Shown: positions 34,739-41,291, counted from the stretch's first letter. The stretch: 64,000 bases of DNA from Hadesarchaea archaeon (GCA_029259175.1 JAPDJH010000018.1:5747-69746), one strand, 5' to 3'. The notes: generated by a model from the letters alone, not told the origin. Numbers and translations are program-made.

Positions 34739-34990
34739 TCATCTGCGATAGGTCTTCTTTCTGTGCCTCACGTACTGGATCTCAACCTCATTCTCACTCT
34801 TTATTTTGTAAATAATTCTGTAATCTCCGGCTCGCAGTTTCCAATATCCCTCCCAATCGCCATGGAGCTTGTGCCCTGCCCGGATATCATCGAAAAGTTC
34901 ATCAATTGCGACTTCTATTCTATAACGAACACTTTTTGGAAGCTTTTTTATGTCTCGCATTGCCCTTCGCGTAAACGTGATTTTTATCAT
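34739..34990 (-). CDS. relE: RelE/ParE-family toxin
   Basis: 83 aa. MIKITFTRRAMRDIKKLPKSVRYRI...GDYRIIYKI...VEIQYVRHRKKTYR is the RelE/StbE fold pattern. Directly downstream of the antitoxin. Confidence 0.75.
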   Translation of the reverse strand: MIKITFTRRAMRDIKKLPKSVRYRIEVAIDELFDDIRAGHKLHGDWEGYWKLRAGDYRIIYKIKSENEVEIQYVRHRKKTYRR

Positions 34991-35009
34991 CCAAAATCAA
35001 CCTGAAATT

Positions 35010-35297
35010 CTATTTGCCTCGTTTCAGCCGTGGGGGCGGGTGACCGAAGACCTCCTCATAGCTGTAAACCCTGCCGGCAGAAGAATCGGCTTGGGCCTCC
35101 CTGAGCGCTCGTAGTGCTCCGGGGTCTGCCATTTCCTCGAGCGTTGCCATTATGCTGTTGTACTCCCGAACTCCGATCACCACTGCCACCGGCTTTCCTT
35201 TTCTACTGACAACTATTTGATTCCCTTTCTCTGCCTGACGGAGAAGCTTCGGGAGATTCCGGTGGGCCTCTTTCACTCCTACAAGGTGTCTAACCAT
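35010..35297 (-). CDS. Phd/YefM-family antitoxin
   Basis: 95 aa. VGVKEAHRNLPKLLRQAEKGNQIVVSRKGKPVAVVIGVREY is the Phd/YefM signature. 19-nt spacing to relE. Confidence 0.7.
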   Translation of the reverse strand: MVRHLVGVKEAHRNLPKLLRQAEKGNQIVVSRKGKPVAVVIGVREYNSIMATLEEMADPGALRALREAQADSSAGRVYSYEEVFGHPPPRLKRGK

Positions 35298-35492
35298 GAA
35301 TACCTCTGTTCAACTATCTGTCGTTCTTGCATTTATAGGTTTGTACCTCGGTTTTAACCTTGAGACATACTTCAAAAAATGATGGGCCGCCAAGATTTGA
35401 ACCCGTATTTACGGAATCTTCAAAAACGGCTCGCGTTCAAAAGTTTGACCTCAAGTGATAAAAGCCGCGGCCGAGAAAGTGTGGTGAGAAAC

Positions 35493-35808
35493 ATGAAGAG
35501 CCCCACCAAAAAAAACACTGGCAGAGATAATCTCCATTTTAAGAAACCACAAGGCTGAACTGAGGGAAAAGTACAGGATCAAAGAAATCGGTGTTTTTGG
35601 CTCCTATGTGCGGGGGGAAGCGGAGCACACGAGCGATGTCGATATCTTGGTCGAATTTGAAGAAAACGCCGATGTTGGACTCATCAAGTTCGTGAAAATT
35701 GAAAACTACCTAAGCGACCTGCTCGGGATCAAGGTGGACTTGGTGGAAAAGAGCGCCCTAAAGCCCAAGATCGGCGCACACGTCGTGCAAGAGGTGATTC
35801 ACGCTTGA
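35493..35808 (+). pseudogene. Minimal nucleotidyltransferase (antitoxin-type) split by a frameshift in an A8 tract
   Basis: ATG at 35493 gives MKSPTKKNTGRDNLHFKKPQG*. The +1 frame from 35515 reads TLAEIISILRNHKAELREKYRIKEIGVFGSYVRGEAEHTSDVDILVEFEE..., carrying the GS..RGE..DxD nucleotidyltransferase motif. The A-run at 35508-35515 is 8 long; 7 A's would give one intact protein of about 104 aa. Confidence 0.6.
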
Positions 35809-35882
35809 AACGGGAAATCGAAGATTATCTCCGCGACATTCTCAACGCAATGGAAAAGCAAGCGAGTTCACCGCAGGGATGA
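35805..35882 (+). pseudogene. HEPN (DUF86) toxin remnant, truncated after 25 codons
   Basis: The TTG at 35805 overlaps the stop of the nucleotidyltransferase (TTGA). LKREIEDYLRDILNAMEKQASSPQG* matches the conserved HEPN/DUF86 N-terminus and then terminates. Confidence 0.5.
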
Positions 35883-35883
35883 G

Positions 35884-36138
35884 TTGCGAACACTCAAAAA
35901 CACAAATTTAAGGAAAGTGTTCCAAGTAATGATGGGAAAACACATGGCCGAATCCCTAACTCTTCAAGATCTCCAAGAAGAGATAATAAAGCTCAAAGCG
36001 GAAATTGAGAAGATAAAACGTGACTTGATTGAAAATCTCGAGCTATCTGATTGGGCAAAGAAACGCTTGAAGAGATATGAAAAAGGGAAGGAGCGGATCG
36101 TGGAGCATGAAGAAGTAAGGAGAGAAATCCTCAAATGA
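35884..36138 (+). CDS. Putative antitoxin (small helical, Lys/Glu-rich) upstream of a RelE-like gene
   Basis: The likely start is the ATG at 35944 (MAESLTLQDLQEEIIKLKAEIEKIKRDL...). Its stop TGA overlaps the ATG of the downstream toxin (ATGA at 36135-36138). Confidence 0.5.
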   Translation: MRTLKNTNLRKVFQVMMGKHMAESLTLQDLQEEIIKLKAEIEKIKRDLIENLELSDWAKKRLKRYEKGKERIVEHEEVRREILK

Positions 36139-36391
36139 GCTTTATCATCAAGTGGACCTCCGGTGCCAGAAAGACATTTTGAGCCTGGACAAAGAAGTCG
36201 CTAGGCGGATTCTGAGAAAAATTGAATCGATAACCGATTCCCCTTTTCGTTTTCTTGAACCGCTTCGGGGCCACCCGTACTACAAGCTCAGAGTCGGAGA
36301 CTACAGGGTGATTTTTGACGTCAACAGGGAGAAGAGGATTCTGATCGTAGTGGTGGTAGGACATCGAAAGAAGATTTATCGAGGACTTTAA
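36135..36391 (+). pseudogene. relE: RelE/ParE-family toxin with a possible N-terminal frameshift (or GTG start at 36152)
   Basis: The ATG at 36135 gives MSFIIKWTSGARKTF*. The +2 frame from the GTG at 36152 continues VDLRCQKDILSLDKEVARRILRKIESITDSPF...GDYRVIFDV...VVVGHRKKIYR. Joined, these give a canonical RelE N-terminus. A single-nucleotide indel lies near 36170. Confidence 0.55.
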
Positions 36392-36446
36392 TCTCGGATC
36401 ACTATCTAAACGCGCCGCTTGGATAGATCACATTAAATTAACAGTT

Positions 36447-36463
36447 CGAGTGGTGGGGCCGCC
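36447..36463 (-). repeat. Direct repeat of the tRNA-Trp 3' terminus (att core)
   Basis: cgagtggtggggccgcc matches cgaatggtggggccgcc at 41154-41170 (16/17). That stretch is the acceptor stem plus CCA of the tRNA at 41158-41291. Confidence 0.65.
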
Positions 36464-36511
36464 TACCATCTGGAATGCTCAACTGTCTCCCCGCAATCAG
36501 TCGGGCCAAGG

Positions 36512-36829
36512 ATGGAAGAAGAGGTCATCGAGGGCATCAGGGACATTCTGGAACGGCTGGCGAGGAACGAGTCCTTCAACCGGCTGGTACGGGAGTACTT
36601 CCGCATCTTGGCCCAGCCAGCGCTGAGGCGCGAACTCAAGGCCTCCAGAGCGTTCGAGGGATTCTCGGACGTCACGTGGTTCGCCCACCGGCTGGGCAGG
36701 TGGCGGACCAAGGGGGCGCGGGAGTGCCTGTCGCTACTCAGGCGGATCCACGAGAGCGTGAGGCGATTCGGCGTCGTCACGACGATGGATGCGCTGATGG
36801 AGGTGATGAGAAAGACAGAGCTGAGATAA
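36512..36829 (+). CDS. Hypothetical helical protein in a GC-rich block
   Basis: 105 aa with a regular helical-looking sequence. Local GC is above 60%, unlike the surroundings. No recognisable motif. Confidence 0.3.
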   Translation: MEEEVIEGIRDILERLARNESFNRLVREYFRILAQPALRRELKASRAFEGFSDVTWFAHRLGRWRTKGARECLSLLRRIHESVRRFGVVTTMDALMEVMRKTELR

Positions 36830-36867
36830 GCGCTGTCAATTTATTACCTAACGCACAATATGAGAAT

Positions 36868-37680
36868 TTGGTGAAGTATGTGAAAGAGAAAATTAGTGGA
36901 CTTTTGAGAAAGTTTGAGAGCATAAAAGCAAACGTTTGGCAGGTTTACGGGACATTGGAAGAACTTGGAAAATTGCGAATCAGAGCCCAACAATCTTTGG
37001 ATAGACACTATCTCATGGACGAGATAGAAAAACTGGAAAAAGCAAAAGTAAAAGAAACCCAGATGATCTTGGAGGAATACCATAGTACCTCTTCAGATGT
37101 TTACAGTCTTCTCAACATGTCTCTTTCTTATTTCTCCCCTCCTAAAACAACAGAGGAGGCAAAGGGGATATTGCGTCGAATCGCGATAGAATGTGATGCC
37201 CTAATAGGTGCCCTAAATGTGTTAATTACGCCGCTCTCGCCTGAAGAGGTTGACCGACTTAATCAATTACGTTCCGAGGTCAAAAAACTATCCAGCAAAC
37301 TTGAGATAGGCTATGAGAAAAACTTGAATGAGGCAATAAACGAGTATGAGAAAGGACATTATTTGGCATCTGCGCTTATCACAGGCAGAGTAATCATCTA
37401 CATTCTAGACCAAGTTGAGGGGGGAACTGAAGAAGAGAAGATTAAATTTCTGCAAGATCACAACGTGATTCCTAGAGGGAGAAAAGATATTAAGGAGTTT
37501 ATAATGAAAGCCAGCCGAAAGGCGCGTCATTTCTTTGCTCATGATATAAAAATTTTTGCCACGGCTTCCGATGCTTTGAGCCTCCTAGGTGATTGTGTAA
37601 AGCTAGTGGAGATACTGGCTAAGTTAAAAAACTCTTCTCAAAAAACAAGCCTGCAATATCGTCACATGTTTAAGAGATAA
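36868..37680 (+). CDS. Hypothetical coiled-coil protein; C-terminus reminiscent of R-M-associated helper domains
   Basis: AT-rich gene starting at a TTG/GTG at 36868-36873. The upstream in-frame extension to 36475 is GC-rich junk. C-terminal KARHFFAHDIKIFATASDALSLL. Immediately upstream of the methyltransferase. Confidence 0.4.
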   Translation: MVKYVKEKISGLLRKFESIKANVWQVYGTLEELGKLRIRAQQSLDRHYLMDEIEKLEKAKVKETQMILEEYHSTSSDVYSLLNMSLSYFSPPKTTEEAKGILRRIAIECDALIGALNVLITPLSPEEVDRLNQLRSEVKKLSSKLEIGYEKNLNEAINEYEKGHYLASALITGRVIIYILDQVEGGTEEEKIKFLQDHNVIPRGRKDIKEFIMKASRKARHFFAHDIKIFATASDALSLLGDCVKLVEILAKLKNSSQKTSLQYRHMFKR

Positions 37681-37693
37681 AAGTGAAAAGAGT

Positions 37694-38704
37694 TTGGACA
37701 TGACAGCAAACAAATTACATTATGAGTGTAAGCATGGCGTGAAGATCTATAACAGTGATGTGCTAGATGTCTACGAAGAGTGGGAGAGCCCAGATGTGAT
37801 AATATCGGATGGACCGTATGGTTTGAATGCTTTCTATGGTGATTGCAAGGTACCAGATGAACTTCCAGCTTGGTATGAACCCCATATAAAAGTTTGGTCT
37901 GAAAAAGCTAGGCCGGGCGCTACTCTATGGTTTTGGAATAGTGAAATAGGATGGGCGTTAGTACATCCTGTTCTAGTGAAGCATGGTTGGACTTATGTTC
38001 GCTTTAATGTCTGGGATAAGAGTATAGCACACGTAGCTGGAAACACCAACACAAAAAAATTGAGGGAGTTCCCCTGCGTCACAGAAGCATGTGTTCAGTA
38101 TGTAAAGGAGGCAAAAATAGGAAATAAAACGCTTAAGGAATGGCTAAGGAGCGAATGGGAAAGAACTGGACTTCCACTCTATGAAGCTAATAAGGCGGCG
38201 GGTGTAGCCAACGCTGCAACTAGAAAGTGGTTGACTAAAGATCATCTTTGGTATACTCCACCACCAGAACAGTTTGAAAAGTTAGTAGAATACGCTAACG
38301 CTCATGGTAGGTCTACAGGAAGACCATATTTTTCGATAGACGGCAAGAAGCCAATTACAAAAGAAGAATATGCGAGATTGTTGCCTAAATTCCATTGTAA
38401 AGTGGGAATAACCAACGTCTGGAAAGAGCCACCACTTCATGGTCCTGAGAGGATAAAAATAAAAAAAGGAGGAAAGTCTGCACATCTAAATCAAAAACCA
38501 TTAAAGCTTATGAGACTCATTATTGAAGCCTCTTCAGATAGAGGCGATGTAATTTGGGAACCATTTGGTGGCCTATGTTCGGCCACTGTGGCTGCCCATC
38601 AATTAGGTCGTAAATGTTATGCTGCTGAGATAGAAAAAGAATTTTTCGAAATGGCTATTAATCGTCTAAAATGTATATGTTCGGAGGGGTCTTTGCGTGT
38701 CTGA
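37694..38704 (+). CDS. DNA methyltransferase, beta-class order (motif IV-like at the N-terminus, motif I at the C-terminus)
   Basis: N-terminal VIISDGPYG, a DPPY-like catalytic motif with Pro-to-Gly substitution. C-terminal VIWEPFGGLCSATVAAHQLGRKCYAAEIE, the FxGxG SAM-binding motif. An 8-nt overlap with the downstream nuclease gene. Confidence 0.6.
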   Translation: MDMTANKLHYECKHGVKIYNSDVLDVYEEWESPDVIISDGPYGLNAFYGDCKVPDELPAWYEPHIKVWSEKARPGATLWFWNSEIGWALVHPVLVKHGWTYVRFNVWDKSIAHVAGNTNTKKLREFPCVTEACVQYVKEAKIGNKTLKEWLRSEWERTGLPLYEANKAAGVANAATRKWLTKDHLWYTPPPEQFEKLVEYANAHGRSTGRPYFSIDGKKPITKEEYARLLPKFHCKVGITNVWKEPPLHGPERIKIKKGGKSAHLNQKPLKLMRLIIEASSDRGDVIWEPFGGLCSATVAAHQLGRKCYAAEIEKEFFEMAINRLKCICSEGSLRV

Positions 38705-39506
38705 GAAAGAGCCCCAACTTAGGGAACCGTCCAAAGAATGGCCCCACTACGAGTTGTGGATGAGAACCAGAAATTTGCTAAAAGAATTGCCTACGTATTT
38801 TAAAAGCACATTGAATATAACATCTGCCGTTAATGTAACTGAAATATATGCCTTCGGCACAGCTCTTAGCTATACGATTGAGGAAGAGGTTGTGAACACT
38901 CTCAACAAGGAAAAAGAACTGCTAGATCCTGATGGAAAATATTGTGAATACTCCTTTACTAGACAGGCACAATCATTCCCCGATGTGTTATTTCTAAATT
39001 CAGAAAAAGGTGACATAATAATGGGAATAGAGCTAAAATCGTGGTATCTCTTGGCGAAAGAGGGTGAACCGAGTTTTCGTTATAAAGTCACGCCTAGCGC
39101 GTGCGCCTTACAAGACTTGTTAGTTGTGGTACCTTGGGCCCTATCCAACGTGGTAACCGGGAATCCTATAGTTTTTGAACCATTCGTAATATCTGCTAGA
39201 TATGCGGCGGAATATCGAAATTATTGGTGGAAGCACTTGAGAAAGGCAGAGGGCAACACGGATATTTCCTCGCCCGACGGAGTCAGTTCTTATCCTTCTA
39301 GCCGTGAAAGGATAGACGATGAACCTGCTTATGATCCTGGTAGAAACTTTGGAAGATTAGCAAGGACAGAAATTATGGATAAATGGGTAAAGAGATGTAA
39401 AAAGGAAAAACTACTCGGAATAGAGATAGAAAAATGGATTGAATTCTTCAAAACGGGTAAAATCAGACATAAGGAAATTTGTGAAAAACGGCTGAAGTCA
39501 TCATAG
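38697..39506 (+). CDS. PD-(D/E)XK restriction endonuclease candidate
   Basis: FPDVLFLNSEKGDIIMGIELKSWY carries PD...(E)LK. Translationally coupled to the methyltransferase. AT-rich. Confidence 0.55.
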   Translation: MSEKEPQLREPSKEWPHYELWMRTRNLLKELPTYFKSTLNITSAVNVTEIYAFGTALSYTIEEEVVNTLNKEKELLDPDGKYCEYSFTRQAQSFPDVLFLNSEKGDIIMGIELKSWYLLAKEGEPSFRYKVTPSACALQDLLVVVPWALSNVVTGNPIVFEPFVISARYAAEYRNYWWKHLRKAEGNTDISSPDGVSSYPSSRERIDDEPAYDPGRNFGRLARTEIMDKWVKRCKKEKLLGIEIEKWIEFFKTGKIRHKEICEKRLKSS

Positions 39507-39515
39507 CACCTGCTC

Positions 39516-40961
39516 TTAGGGGCCCCCTGTTTCAGTCTCCTTTGTCCAACATTGTACTTTCATGACAATTAGGACAAGAATTATGCTAGCGATTGAGAGG
39601 ATAGATATCGAAGGACCAATTATGAAACCAATCCCACCATAAAAAAATATGAAAAATAAGCCGATCAACCCGGATGTACTCACCACGCCGATCATATTAC
39701 GGAACTGTCTATTTTCCATAAATTGTATCCCGCAGATACAACATCTAATTCCTCTTTCGGCAAAAAATATCAAAGACATCATAACAAAGATTGCCCAAAT
39801 ATTTTTGTCCAAGTTTTGTAGAAGAGCCAAAATTATATAAAGACCAGAAGTGATGGTTGCAACATAAATAAAAGTGAGAATGCCTAGAAGAGCGGAAGAT
39901 ATAGATTTTGATGTAAGTTTATACTGAAAAATTTGCAAGATTGCGCGCTTTGCTGTTTCCTTTTCTTTTGGGAAGAAAATTGATAAAACCACATAAAAGA
40001 GAAGTAAAAATACAAACCAAACCAAAATGTTAGTGATGAGGACCTTGAAAGACGATAAGAAAGTAAACTCGCTTAGAAAAACATTTTCGTAACTCGTTTT
40101 ACCTGCGGTTACTTTAACTACCTTCTCGGCTCGATATCCAATCATTCCCCCCGATTCAATGATTATTTTGTATTCGCCTTCACCCAGATTGAAAACGCAC
40201 GCACCGTTCTCATCAGTCAAGAATGGTGCCGAACTCCGCGTTCTCACCACACGTACTCGTGCGTTTGGCACAGGTTCGTTTTCCTTTCTAACACTGATGA
40301 TTAACTTGCCGGTTCTCTTTACGTACCGAGTGGTAACATCATGTGCTGTGCCAGAGTCGTCAACGGCGTATACGAAAAAGAGTTGTTCTCCTCCTCCATT
40401 TTCATTCTCTGGACGCTCGTAAAATGCAGGATCGTTAATAATGCCTCTCTTCCCAGTTGCTGGATTAGTTTTGCTTGGGTCAACATGTATCCAATCTCCA
40501 TTAATTTTTACCTCAGCCCAAGCATGATCCAGACCCAAATTGTACACAACCCGGGCATTATCTATGCCTGCTGTTTTTGCCAATTCTACGAACAGCCTTG
40601 CAAACTCTTCACATGCGCCGTGTTTGAAGAACATTATCCATTGTGGATGCATAAGTCGAAGGTACGTGACAGGGATCCTATCTAATAGAAAATATAGCGG
40701 CGGTATGGAGCTATGCGGACGCTTGTAAATGATTTTCCCCTCAAAATTTCTATCCTCCCACTCAATAATCGCATTGATAATGGACAAATGATTCGAATTC
40801 TTGCTACCGATTTCAGTCCCGACTTTTTGTATTTCCGCCTCTCCCAATATTTGGACGACAAAGTAGGGAAGCCAGAAGGTAGATAGAACGGTTAGTAATA
40901 GAAGCGCTGTCGCTAGATAGGTCTTGAACTTTTTCCACTTTCTTTCTGTGTTTGATGGCAT
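39516..40961 (-). CDS. Membrane-anchored transglutaminase-like cysteine protease-fold protein
   Basis: GACEEFARLFVELAKTAGI...DHAWAEV...GDWIHVDPS is a Cys-His-Asp transglutaminase-like core. An N-terminal TM, a beta-sandwich region, then more than six TM helices. Confidence 0.6.
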   Translation of the reverse strand: MPSNTERKWKKFKTYLATALLLLTVLSTFWLPYFVVQILGEAEIQKVGTEIGSKNSNHLSIINAIIEWEDRNFEGKIIYKRPHSSIPPLYFLLDRIPVTYLRLMHPQWIMFFKHGACEEFARLFVELAKTAGIDNARVVYNLGLDHAWAEVKINGDWIHVDPSKTNPATGKRGIINDPAFYERPENENGGGEQLFFVYAVDDSGTAHDVTTRYVKRTGKLIISVRKENEPVPNARVRVVRTRSSAPFLTDENGACVFNLGEGEYKIIIESGGMIGYRAEKVVKVTAGKTSYENVFLSEFTFLSSFKVLITNILVWFVFLLLFYVVLSIFFPKEKETAKRAILQIFQYKLTSKSISSALLGILTFIYVATITSGLYIILALLQNLDKNIWAIFVMMSLIFFAERGIRCCICGIQFMENRQFRNMIGVVSTSGLIGLFFIFFYGGIGFIIGPSISILSIASIILVLIVMKVQCWTKETETGGP

Positions 40962-41157
40962 GTCCCACCAATTGTATCGTTTTTCATTTAGTTAGAAGAA
41001 TGTAACTCCGCAATTATCACGAAGCATTTTTAGAATGCAACGTGTTCTCTCATTTTTATCAACGATGATCCTCCACCAGCCTGCTCATCAGCTCGTCCAC
41101 CACTGTACACGGCATCTTCGTAATTCAGCGACACGGTAGACCATTGAGCAATCCGAA

Positions 41158-41291
41158 TGGTGGGGCCGCCAGGATTTGAACCCGGGTTTGCGGGTCTCAC
41201 CGCGCCAGTGGGTCATCATCTCCACATCAGCAGACCCACAATCTCTCGGCCCACTGGAGCCCGCCGTGATACCAGGCTACACTACGGCCCC
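41158..41291 (-). tRNA. trnW: tRNA-Trp(CCA) with a 58-nt intron and encoded CCA
   Basis: Reverse complement reads GGGGCCG...GCGGG-CTCCAG[intron]A-CCCGC...CCGGGTTCAAATCCTGG-CGGCCCC-A-CCA. The acceptor pairs 7/7, the T-loop is TTCAAAT, and the anticodon is CCA. The intron (41196-41253) sits at the canonical 37/38 position. Confidence 0.85.
41196..41253 (-). ncRNA. tRNA-Trp intron carrying box C/D-like motifs
   Basis: The intron contains CUGA and AUGAUGA (41213-41219) flanked by a GUGGG/CCCAC stem, resembling the box C/D guide found in archaeal tRNA-Trp introns. Confidence 0.5.

Follow-up and report, generated by a model that had tools for sequence, protein, structure and literature searches.

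In DNA methyltransferases with a DPPY motif, the chemistry is ascribed to the side chain of the first residue, a backbone carbonyl and a stacking aromatic residue; Asp in the first position of this motif (motif IV) is typical of the enzymes that methylate N6 of adenine, and Ser is typical of those that methylate N4 of cytosine. The published consensus of motif IV is (D/N/S)-P-P-(Y/F/W), and motif I has the form FxGxG (PMC7544214). A four-gene block of low guanine-plus-cytosine (GC) content in a Hadesarchaea archaeon (GCA_029259175.1, JAPDJH010000018.1:5747-69746) encodes a methyltransferase in which motif IV reads DGPY. The whole stretch of 64,000 nucleotides (nt) that was analysed is called here the window, and all coordinates are counted on it. 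The methyltransferase gene overlaps the gene of a candidate PD-(D/E)XK endonuclease, and the pair is probably a mobile type II restriction-modification module, with a methyltransferase that probably acts on N6 of adenine, a reading to which we assign a probability of about 0.8. In this genome, the module is mechanistically ordinary and resides in a tRNA-linked island; the point of interest lies at the level of the family.

The methyltransferase and its family

A previous, sequence-only reading of this DNA had described the first gene of the pair as encoding a beta-class methyltransferase with DGPY at the catalytic motif, to be checked against the Pfam profile N6_N4_Mtase. The 336-amino acid (aa) protein matches this profile (PF01555) with 76.8 bits, above the curated cut-off of 26.7 (E 3.2e-21), and the match spans residues 34-322, that is, positions 2-220 of the 221 in the profile. 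The type II MTase_II models of PADLOC also match the protein (best E 2.7e-23), as does a phage DNA methyltransferase family. Its relatives in the PDB are CcrM, BceJIV, MboIIA and DpnA, and the alignment with CcrM and BceJIV, together with the PF01555 match, bears out the description. The gene callers place the start of the methyltransferase at the ATG at 37700.

The motifs come in the order that is characteristic of the beta class, with DGPYG at residues 39-43, HLNQKP at 264-269 and EPFGGLCS at 289-296. When aligned to solved structures, VIISDGPYG stands opposite LIFADPPYN of CcrM and LIVADPPYG of 8urk, and the C-terminal HLNQKPL...WEPFGGLCSAT stands opposite HPTQKP...DPFFGVGTTG. The previous assignment of EPFGGLCSAT to FxGxG was correct with respect to the motif I position at the C-terminus, but the final Gly of this motif is replaced by Cys (F291-G-G-L-C295).

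Compared with CcrM, M.BceJIV, M.MboIIA, DpnA and M.RsrI, all of the PF01555 family, the protein has the same fold family and the same motif order, namely IV, target recognition domain, X and I. The HxxQKP that precedes motif I, the acidic residue of motif II (E312) and the Asp and Tyr of motif IV are all kept. In contrast, motif IV is D-G-[P/A/G]-Y in this family, compared with D-P-P-Y in the CcrM-type enzymes, and motif I is F-G-G-L-[C/F/A], compared with F-x-G-x-G. Furthermore, the central region of ~130 residues, which is strongly conserved here, has no counterpart in the solved CcrM-type enzymes, and the identity to these enzymes is limited to short segments.

Thus defined, the 336-aa protein possesses neither the canonical motif IV nor the canonical motif I, having DGPY and FGGLC in their places. 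These departures recur among its relatives. All 120 nearest protein clusters (56-79% identity) contain DG[PAG]Y, which is DGPY in 62 of them and DGAY or DGGY in the rest. Among 51 aligned members (47-79% identity), some of them encoded on plasmids of cultured bacteria, no substitution occurs at D39, G40 or Y42, nor at H264, N266-P269, F291-G293 or E312, the acidic residue of motif II. An exhaustive search, which covered 1.84 billion representative proteins, yielded 140 clusters (at 50% identity) with E <= 1e-30, of which 99 cover motif IV; the motif is DG[A/P/G]Y in 85 of these 99 cluster representatives and DPPY in none. The second Pro of motif IV is the variable position in the family (P/A/G). 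Motif I of the family can be written as (E/D)PFGG[L/T/V][C/F/A][S/T], with G seldom found in the last position of FxGxG. In a literature search for DGPY or DGAY methyltransferases, no paper was found to mention the DGxY variant.

Judging by these alignments, the combination of DG[P/A/G]Y and FGGL[C/F/A] is a conserved signature of a large, mobile family and no sign of decay. The Asp side chain, the backbone carbonyl of the second residue and the stacking Tyr are all retained in DGPY, so that Gly in the second position appears to be compatible with the chemistry. The central region of the methyltransferase is conserved to an unusually high degree for a target recognition domain, which hints at one specificity common to the family. 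Within this family-specific region, W186-Y187-x-P189-P190 is invariant (residues 186-190, ~38249-38263).

The partner nuclease and its linkage to the methyltransferase

The 269-aa product of the second gene contains the motifs PDVLF and IELK. The PD-(D/E)XK constellation that had been noticed in it (PDVLFL...IELK) holds up well, given that D96, E112 and K114, as well as E62 and other positions, are invariant in 63 aligned relatives. Altogether, the relatives of the nuclease form 1192 clusters. The PADLOC model REase_II PDLC03583 matches only the core of the protein (residues 85-172, E 2.4e-10); the same model is matched by all 63 family members, none of them strongly (best 3e-12). No family was found for the nuclease in Pfam or NCBIfam, and its relatives on RefSeq plasmids are annotated as 'hypothetical protein'.

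The AlphaFold2 (AF2) model of the nuclease has a predicted local distance difference test score (pLDDT) of 92.7 and a predicted template modelling score (pTM) of 0.89. In this model, E62 is located on helix 47-71, D96 immediately precedes strand 97-101, and E112 and K114 lie on strand 106-117. A Foldseek comparison of the model with the PDB returned solely the type II enzymes EcoRV, HincII and SwaI at ranks 1-36, with SfiI at rank 43. The best match, EcoRV, is weak (E 9.1e-3, probability 0.96, template modelling (TM) score 0.31-0.34), and none reaches E <= 1e-3. When the profile of the nuclease family was compared with the sequences of the PDB, the sole matches were to designed repeat proteins; these were rejected as spurious, leaving no sequence relative.

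The nuclease resembles EcoRV, HincII, SwaI and SfiI in that E...PD...(D/E)XK is displayed on a helix-strand-strand core and in its similar size (~240-270 residues). It differs from these enzymes in having no detectable sequence similarity to the solved structures, and the TM score is about 0.3. The predicted structure thus supports a classical PD-(D/E)XK core. The kinship to the EcoRV lineage is tentative because the fold scores are weak and there is no sequence relative in the PDB.

The linkage of the two genes is tight. They overlap by 8 nt (GTGTCTGA, 38697-38704), with GGAGGGG ~10 nt upstream, and the overlap, which had been recognized in the sequence-only reading, is kept in the nearest homologue as ATGTCTGA. 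The distribution of the nuclease was scanned with one genome per species, and 80 loci were fetched. Relatives of the nuclease are present in 472 species genomes, from Chloroflexota, Planctomycetota, Verrucomicrobiota, Poribacteria, Acidobacteriota, Nitrospirota, Desulfobacterota, Proteobacteria, Armatimonadota and Latescibacterota among the bacteria, and also from a few archaea. In 77 of the 80 loci, the gene immediately upstream of the nuclease encodes a DGxY methyltransferase and has the same orientation. Clustering of all flanking open reading frames (ORFs) at the loci of the pair revealed no third gene conserved beside it. Taken together, the Pfam and PADLOC matches, the invariant catalytic residues, the EcoRV/HincII-like fold and the adjacency in 77 of 80 loci support the previous proposal of a type II restriction-modification pair.

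The pair is also found on mobile elements. Plasmids that carry it were detected in Cupriavidus pauculus, in Cutibacterium acnes and C. granulosum (pTZC1-type), in Micrococcus sp. 28, in Gordonia and in Rhodococcus; in the plasmid annotation, the methyltransferase is labeled 'DNA methyltransferase' and its partner 'hypothetical protein'. Cultured carriers include C. pauculus FDAARGOS_1472 (plasmid NZ_CP082867), C. acnes TP-CU389 (pTZC1), Micrococcus sp. 28 (pSD10), Gordonia rubripertincta and Rhodococcus sp. WAY2. It is present, in addition, in 14 viral contigs of IMG/VR. The nearest pair (79-83% identity) comes from a 38%-GC archaeal contig, where it adjoins transposases and an integrase and where its GC content fits that of the host. 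This setting points to a low-GC archaeal lineage as the putative donor. On the multidrug-resistance plasmid pTZC1 of C. acnes, the pair adjoins tet(W) (NZ_LC473083.1:28156-30160).

The Pro-to-Gly change had been seen as raising the question of whether the methyltransferase is active or acts on N4 of cytosine. The enzyme could be dead or weakened, and the pair would then be a decaying remnant or one that does not function in restriction; that both motif IV and motif I depart from the consensus would fit such a scenario. However, inactivity appears very unlikely because D39, G40 and Y42 do not vary in the family as a whole, that is, the deviation is common to all its members rather than a peculiarity of this protein. 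Moreover, both ORFs of the pair are intact, with the full length of their homologues, the pair spreads via plasmids and viruses, and the methyltransferase is linked, in 77 of 80 genomes, to an intact nuclease that would be lethal if the protective methylation were missing. The tight linkage of an intact nuclease to the methyltransferase and the wide transfer of the pair argue strongly for an active methyltransferase, and degradation of the pair is, in our estimate, highly improbable.

Target base and mode of action

As a restriction-modification module, the pair can be expected to work in a familiar manner. With S-adenosylmethionine (SAM) as its methyl donor, the methyltransferase would modify an exocyclic amino group at a particular DNA sequence, and N6 of adenine is the most likely target. 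The nuclease, with its EcoRV-like fold, would bind Mg2+ through E62, D96, E112 and K114 and cut the same sequence when it is unmethylated, presumably as a dimer and with blunt-type cleavage. The conserved 8-nt overlap would mediate translational coupling with the methyltransferase made first, which would favour protection before restriction. The module arrived within the low-GC block, at a hot spot bounded by 3'-end repeats of tRNA-Trp, and there it would probably serve in defence against foreign DNA and, in addition, as an addiction module.

With regard to the target base, the evidence leans towards N6-adenine because of the profile scores, the partial NCBIfam matches and the invariant Asp. 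The profile of the methyltransferase family detects the N6-adenine enzymes MboIIA, BceJIV (8urk), DpnA and CcrM with E values from 7e-14 to 3e-12, compared with 6e-7 (8s9m) and 5e-4 (PvuII, 1boo) for N4-cytosine enzymes. The partial NCBIfam matches of the protein are to CcrM and YhdJ-type adenine methyltransferases.

The same data bear on a variant of this reading, in which the pair still functions in restriction-modification but N4-methylcytosine is the product of the methyltransferase, the altered motif IV being associated with the other target base. The beta class does include many N4-cytosine methyltransferases, the family profile still picks up two of them (8s9m and 1boo), and motif IV is non-canonical, so that the rules derived from DPPY and SPPY enzymes may not transfer to this family. 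Nevertheless, the first residue of motif IV is an invariant Asp rather than the Ser typical of N4-cytosine enzymes, the N6-adenine enzymes score 5-9 orders of magnitude better, and the best partial NCBIfam matches are to the CcrM and YhdJ-type adenine methyltransferases. A cytosine target is, accordingly, rather unlikely, although it retains some weight.

Several points weigh against the pair being an adenine-specific restriction-modification module. The preference for N6-adenine rests mostly on the SAM-binding half of the methyltransferase, which is scarcely informative on the target base. Motifs IV and I are both off the textbook forms, (D/N/S)PP(Y/F/W) and FxGxG, respectively (PMC7544214). 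The nuclease resembles the solved enzymes weakly in its fold (best E 9e-3, TM 0.31-0.34), neither Pfam nor NCBIfam has a family for it, and the PADLOC match is confined to core residues 85-172. Finally, no biochemical or methylome data were found for any member of the family. Palindrome avoidance in 0.88 Mb of host loci, assessed without control genomes, amounted to the usual general depletion only (CTAG, CTCGAG), which carries no information on the specificity.

It is possible, if short of probable, that the DG[P/A/G]Y/FGG-L-[C/F/A] methyltransferases and their 'hypothetical' PD-(D/E)XK partners constitute a widespread type II family that lacks a characterised member, with relatives in at least 472 species from more than ten bacterial phyla and from archaea, as well as on plasmids and viruses. 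Should this be the case, both prolines of the 'PP' catalytic loop would be dispensable for DNA amino-methylation, and the conserved recognition region might carry one new specificity common to the family. More remotely, the changes in the catalytic and cofactor loops could point to another target atom or another transferred group. There are also implications for genome annotation. Activity calls that equate an eroded motif with an inactive enzyme would misjudge the DG[P/A/G]Y family, which is clearly under selection and in which the Asp and Tyr are kept and the Gly is invariant. Neither Pfam nor NCBIfam contains a model for the nuclease family, which is 'hypothetical' even on plasmids of cultured bacteria, such as pTZC1, so that the restriction barrier it would create is invisible to current annotation.

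The tRNA-linked island and the other genes of the block

All four genes that had been identified as having a low GC content are present as intact ORFs, at the coordinates listed in Table 1. Across 36840-41000, the GC content is 0.406, whereas windows of the same size outside the island have a mean of 0.517 (standard deviation (SD) 0.021, minimum 0.485). The mean GC content of the whole window is 51.2%, and the block is 5 SD under the window mean. Elsewhere in the window, the GC content drops below 44% in a single 500-bp window near 54751. The individual genes of the block have a GC content of 0.40-0.42 and a GC content at third codon positions (GC3) of 0.34-0.41, compared with a GC3 of 0.58-0.73 in the flanking genes. 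The previous notion of an AT-rich cargo block is correct insofar as this is foreign, low-GC cargo, but the four genes are not one system, considering that neither of the two outer genes accompanies the pair in any of 83 other loci.

Table 1. Coordinates of the low-GC block, the surrounding island and their boundaries
Feature	Coordinates	Strand	Evidence or description
Left island boundary, a degenerate direct repeat of the tRNA 3' part	35379-35405	.	ATGATGGGCCGCCAAGATTTGAACCCG compared with ATGGTGGGGCCGCCAGGATTTGAACCCG at the tRNA
Strain-variable island, 5749 bp	35406-41154	.	blastn against sibling contigs
Truncated MNT-type nucleotidyltransferase fragment	35608-35808	+	PF01909 E 1.6e-10, profile positions 25-81 of 93
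64-aa ORF, putative antitoxin ahead of the ParE toxin	~35944-36138		Gene calls in L001
ParE-family toxin	36152-36391	+	PF05016 E 3.9e-12
Exact repeat (13 nt) of the tRNA 3' terminus, splits the island in two	36451-36463	.	TGGTGGGGCCGCC
105-aa ORF	36512-36829	+	GC 0.615, GC3 0.85
All-helical protein with a HEPN-like motif	36868-37680	+	AF2 model, conserved RNxxxH
Methyltransferase (M subunit)	37694-38704	+	336 aa; PF01555, PADLOC MTase_II
PD-(D/E)XK endonuclease candidate (R subunit)	38697-39506	+	269 aa; PADLOC REase_II, AF2 model
Membrane protein with a transglutaminase-like core	39516-40961	-	PF01841, PF13620
Intron-containing tRNA, with its 3' end as the right island boundary (attachment site)	41161-41291	-	Rfam RF00005, 49.6 bits

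The boundaries of the island are defined by comparison with sibling strains. In four sibling contigs (L093, L094, L095 and L099) aligned with blastn, the flanks are 99.2-99.8% identical to those in the window and the segment 35406-41154 is missing; in its place, at the same tRNA-linked site, the siblings have a 771-bp cassette that encodes MazE and a PIN domain protein (L093:9357-10127). Homology to the sibling strains stops at 35405, and the siblings retain a longer copy of the tRNA 3' end, of ~45 nt. The integration hot spot linked to tRNA-Trp and the different cassette in the siblings, which come from related samples, had escaped the earlier examination of the single sequence. Between the window and the near-identical contig L001, there are 43 differences, none of them inside the island, where ~12 would be expected; this fits a recent arrival. 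Sibling strains with and without the island coexist in the same metagenomes, which provides a natural experiment for reading the methylated motif. Among the source samples, ERZ25515786 contains the island, and ERZ25515360 and ERZ25515408 lack it.

Copies of the tRNA 3' end are located at 35379-35405, 36451-36463 and 41158-41184. The only other copy of the 13-nt tRNA terminus found in the middle of the island is at 41158-41170, within the end of the tRNA itself, and ~2e-4 matches to a given 13-mer would be expected by chance in 5.7 kb when both strands are counted. The tRNA was found with Rfam, whereas ARAGORN detected no tRNA in the window. Its terminal CCA is encoded, at 41158-41160, and the anticodon is read as CCA, that is, tRNA-Trp. 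The intron is ~60 nt long and bears a weak likeness to a box C/D RNA (Rfam sR3, 19.8 bits, E 0.004, below the gathering score). Archaeal tRNA-Trp genes are known for a guide-RNA intron, and the sR3 likeness fits this pattern. The tRNA 3' end (41169) is also the exact breakpoint of several Logan contigs, and several variants thus seem to coexist in the populations.

Neither an integrase nor a transposase was found within the island, and on this ground the block might be taken for native DNA of locally odd composition that was never acquired. The comparison with the sibling strains, in which the flanks are 99.5% identical and the segment is missing, refutes this explanation. It is further contradicted by the GC content 5 SD under the window mean, by the tRNA 3'-end repeats at the bounds and by the nearest relatives of the pair (79-83% identity), which adjoin transposases and an integrase in an archaeal genome of 38% GC. 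A native origin thus seems hardly tenable.

The acquired segment shares with the archaeal tRNA-targeted integrative elements the direct repeats of the tRNA 3' end, the cargo of foreign GC content and the presence of alternative cargo in sibling strains. Unlike such elements, it has no integrase gene or recognisable fragment of one, with no integrase domain among its ORFs, and it includes three tRNA-end copies. It is also a composite of a 45%-GC part (the truncated MNT and the ParE module), the 61%-GC 105-aa ORF and the 41%-GC four-gene block. The island therefore looks like an eroded accretion rather than one intact element. A 4.8-kb Logan contig (L002) that corresponds to 36362-41182 of the window was considered as an excised circle and rejected, as it has no terminal overlap. 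The 105-aa ORF, the GC content of which is far above that of the host, is located after the 13-nt copy of the tRNA end and before the low-GC block. No significant match was found for it in Pfam, PADLOC, PHROGs or viral contigs, and the idea that it is a fragment of a split integrase of the SSV type was dropped, no family match supporting it. Just outside the island, a Phd/ParE pair is encoded at 34739-35297 on the minus strand, and the truncated MNT and a second ParE module lie inside (35608-36391, plus strand). The tRNA-linked hot spot seems to collect addiction-type modules.

The outer gene downstream of the pair had been described as encoding, on the opposite strand, a membrane protein with a Cys-His-Asp transglutaminase-like core. 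This description agrees with the match to PF01841 (Transglut_core), which is above the threshold (47 bits, cut-off 23, E 3.4e-12); the protein also matches PF13620, a CarboxypepD_reg-like domain (E 2e-6). No relative of this protein occurs beside the pair in the 83 loci, and a scan of metagenome contigs yielded no close relative. From this distribution, the gene is best classed as co-cargo that is no part of the restriction-modification system.

The outer gene upstream of the pair, for which GTG at 36877 is an equally possible start codon, encodes an all-helical protein, with long N-terminal helices and a C-terminal domain (AF2 model, pLDDT 93). It has 52 relatives, all of ~250 aa; the two with an organism name come from Bathyarchaeia and Hadesarchaea. 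The C-terminal A-R-N-x-x-S-H follows the Rx4H pattern of the HEPN type, with R220 found in 43 and H225 in 38 of 44 relatives, and N, D or H at position 221. PF13643 (DUF4145) is matched, below the threshold, by 5 of the 44 members (best E 0.003). The protein itself has no Pfam match of significance and no sequence match in the PDB, and Foldseek searches of the PDB and BFVD returned nothing significant, just generic helical bundles. Compared with the HEPN superfamily (DUF4145-like), the similarities are the all-helical C-terminal domain, the R-N-x-x-x-H and the variable, defence-type neighbourhoods; the differences are the lack of a significant Pfam, PDB-sequence or fold match and the N-terminal helical half, which has no assigned family. 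The earlier portrayal of a coiled-coil protein with a helper-like C-terminus is consistent with the all-helical model, but the helper domain is just a lead, in view of the lack of significant profile or fold matches and of the varied neighbours.

Such a protein could be imagined as a third component of the system, an abortive-infection arm of the RNase type coupled to restriction-modification in a three-gene operon. The gene is co-directional with the pair, with 13-19 nt between its stop codon and the start of the methyltransferase, and has the same low GC content; the RNxxxH is conserved, and, of 58 loci with relatives of the protein, 7 have type IIG-like methylases and 5 have solo Cas1 as neighbours. 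However, none of the 83 other loci of the pair has a relative of the upstream protein, none of the 58 loci of its relatives has this methyltransferase or nuclease, and membership in the HEPN superfamily is not established. A role as a third component is, for these reasons, improbable, and the upstream protein, to judge from gene neighbourhoods, is outside the restriction-modification system and is no conserved partner of the pair. The gene may still be co-transcribed with the pair here because the gap to the methyltransferase start is just 13-19 nt.

It is plausible that this is a defence-island gene. The neighbours of its relatives vary and include an Eco57I/TaqI_C-type methylase (type IIG-like, the 7 of 58 loci mentioned above), an MmeI-like enzyme, an IS91 transposase and housekeeping genes. 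Among L100, L105, L155 and related loci, the relatives are convergent to a solo Cas1 and an ORF of 113-115 aa in at least five loci, and in 10 loci they adjoin a 351-aa protein.

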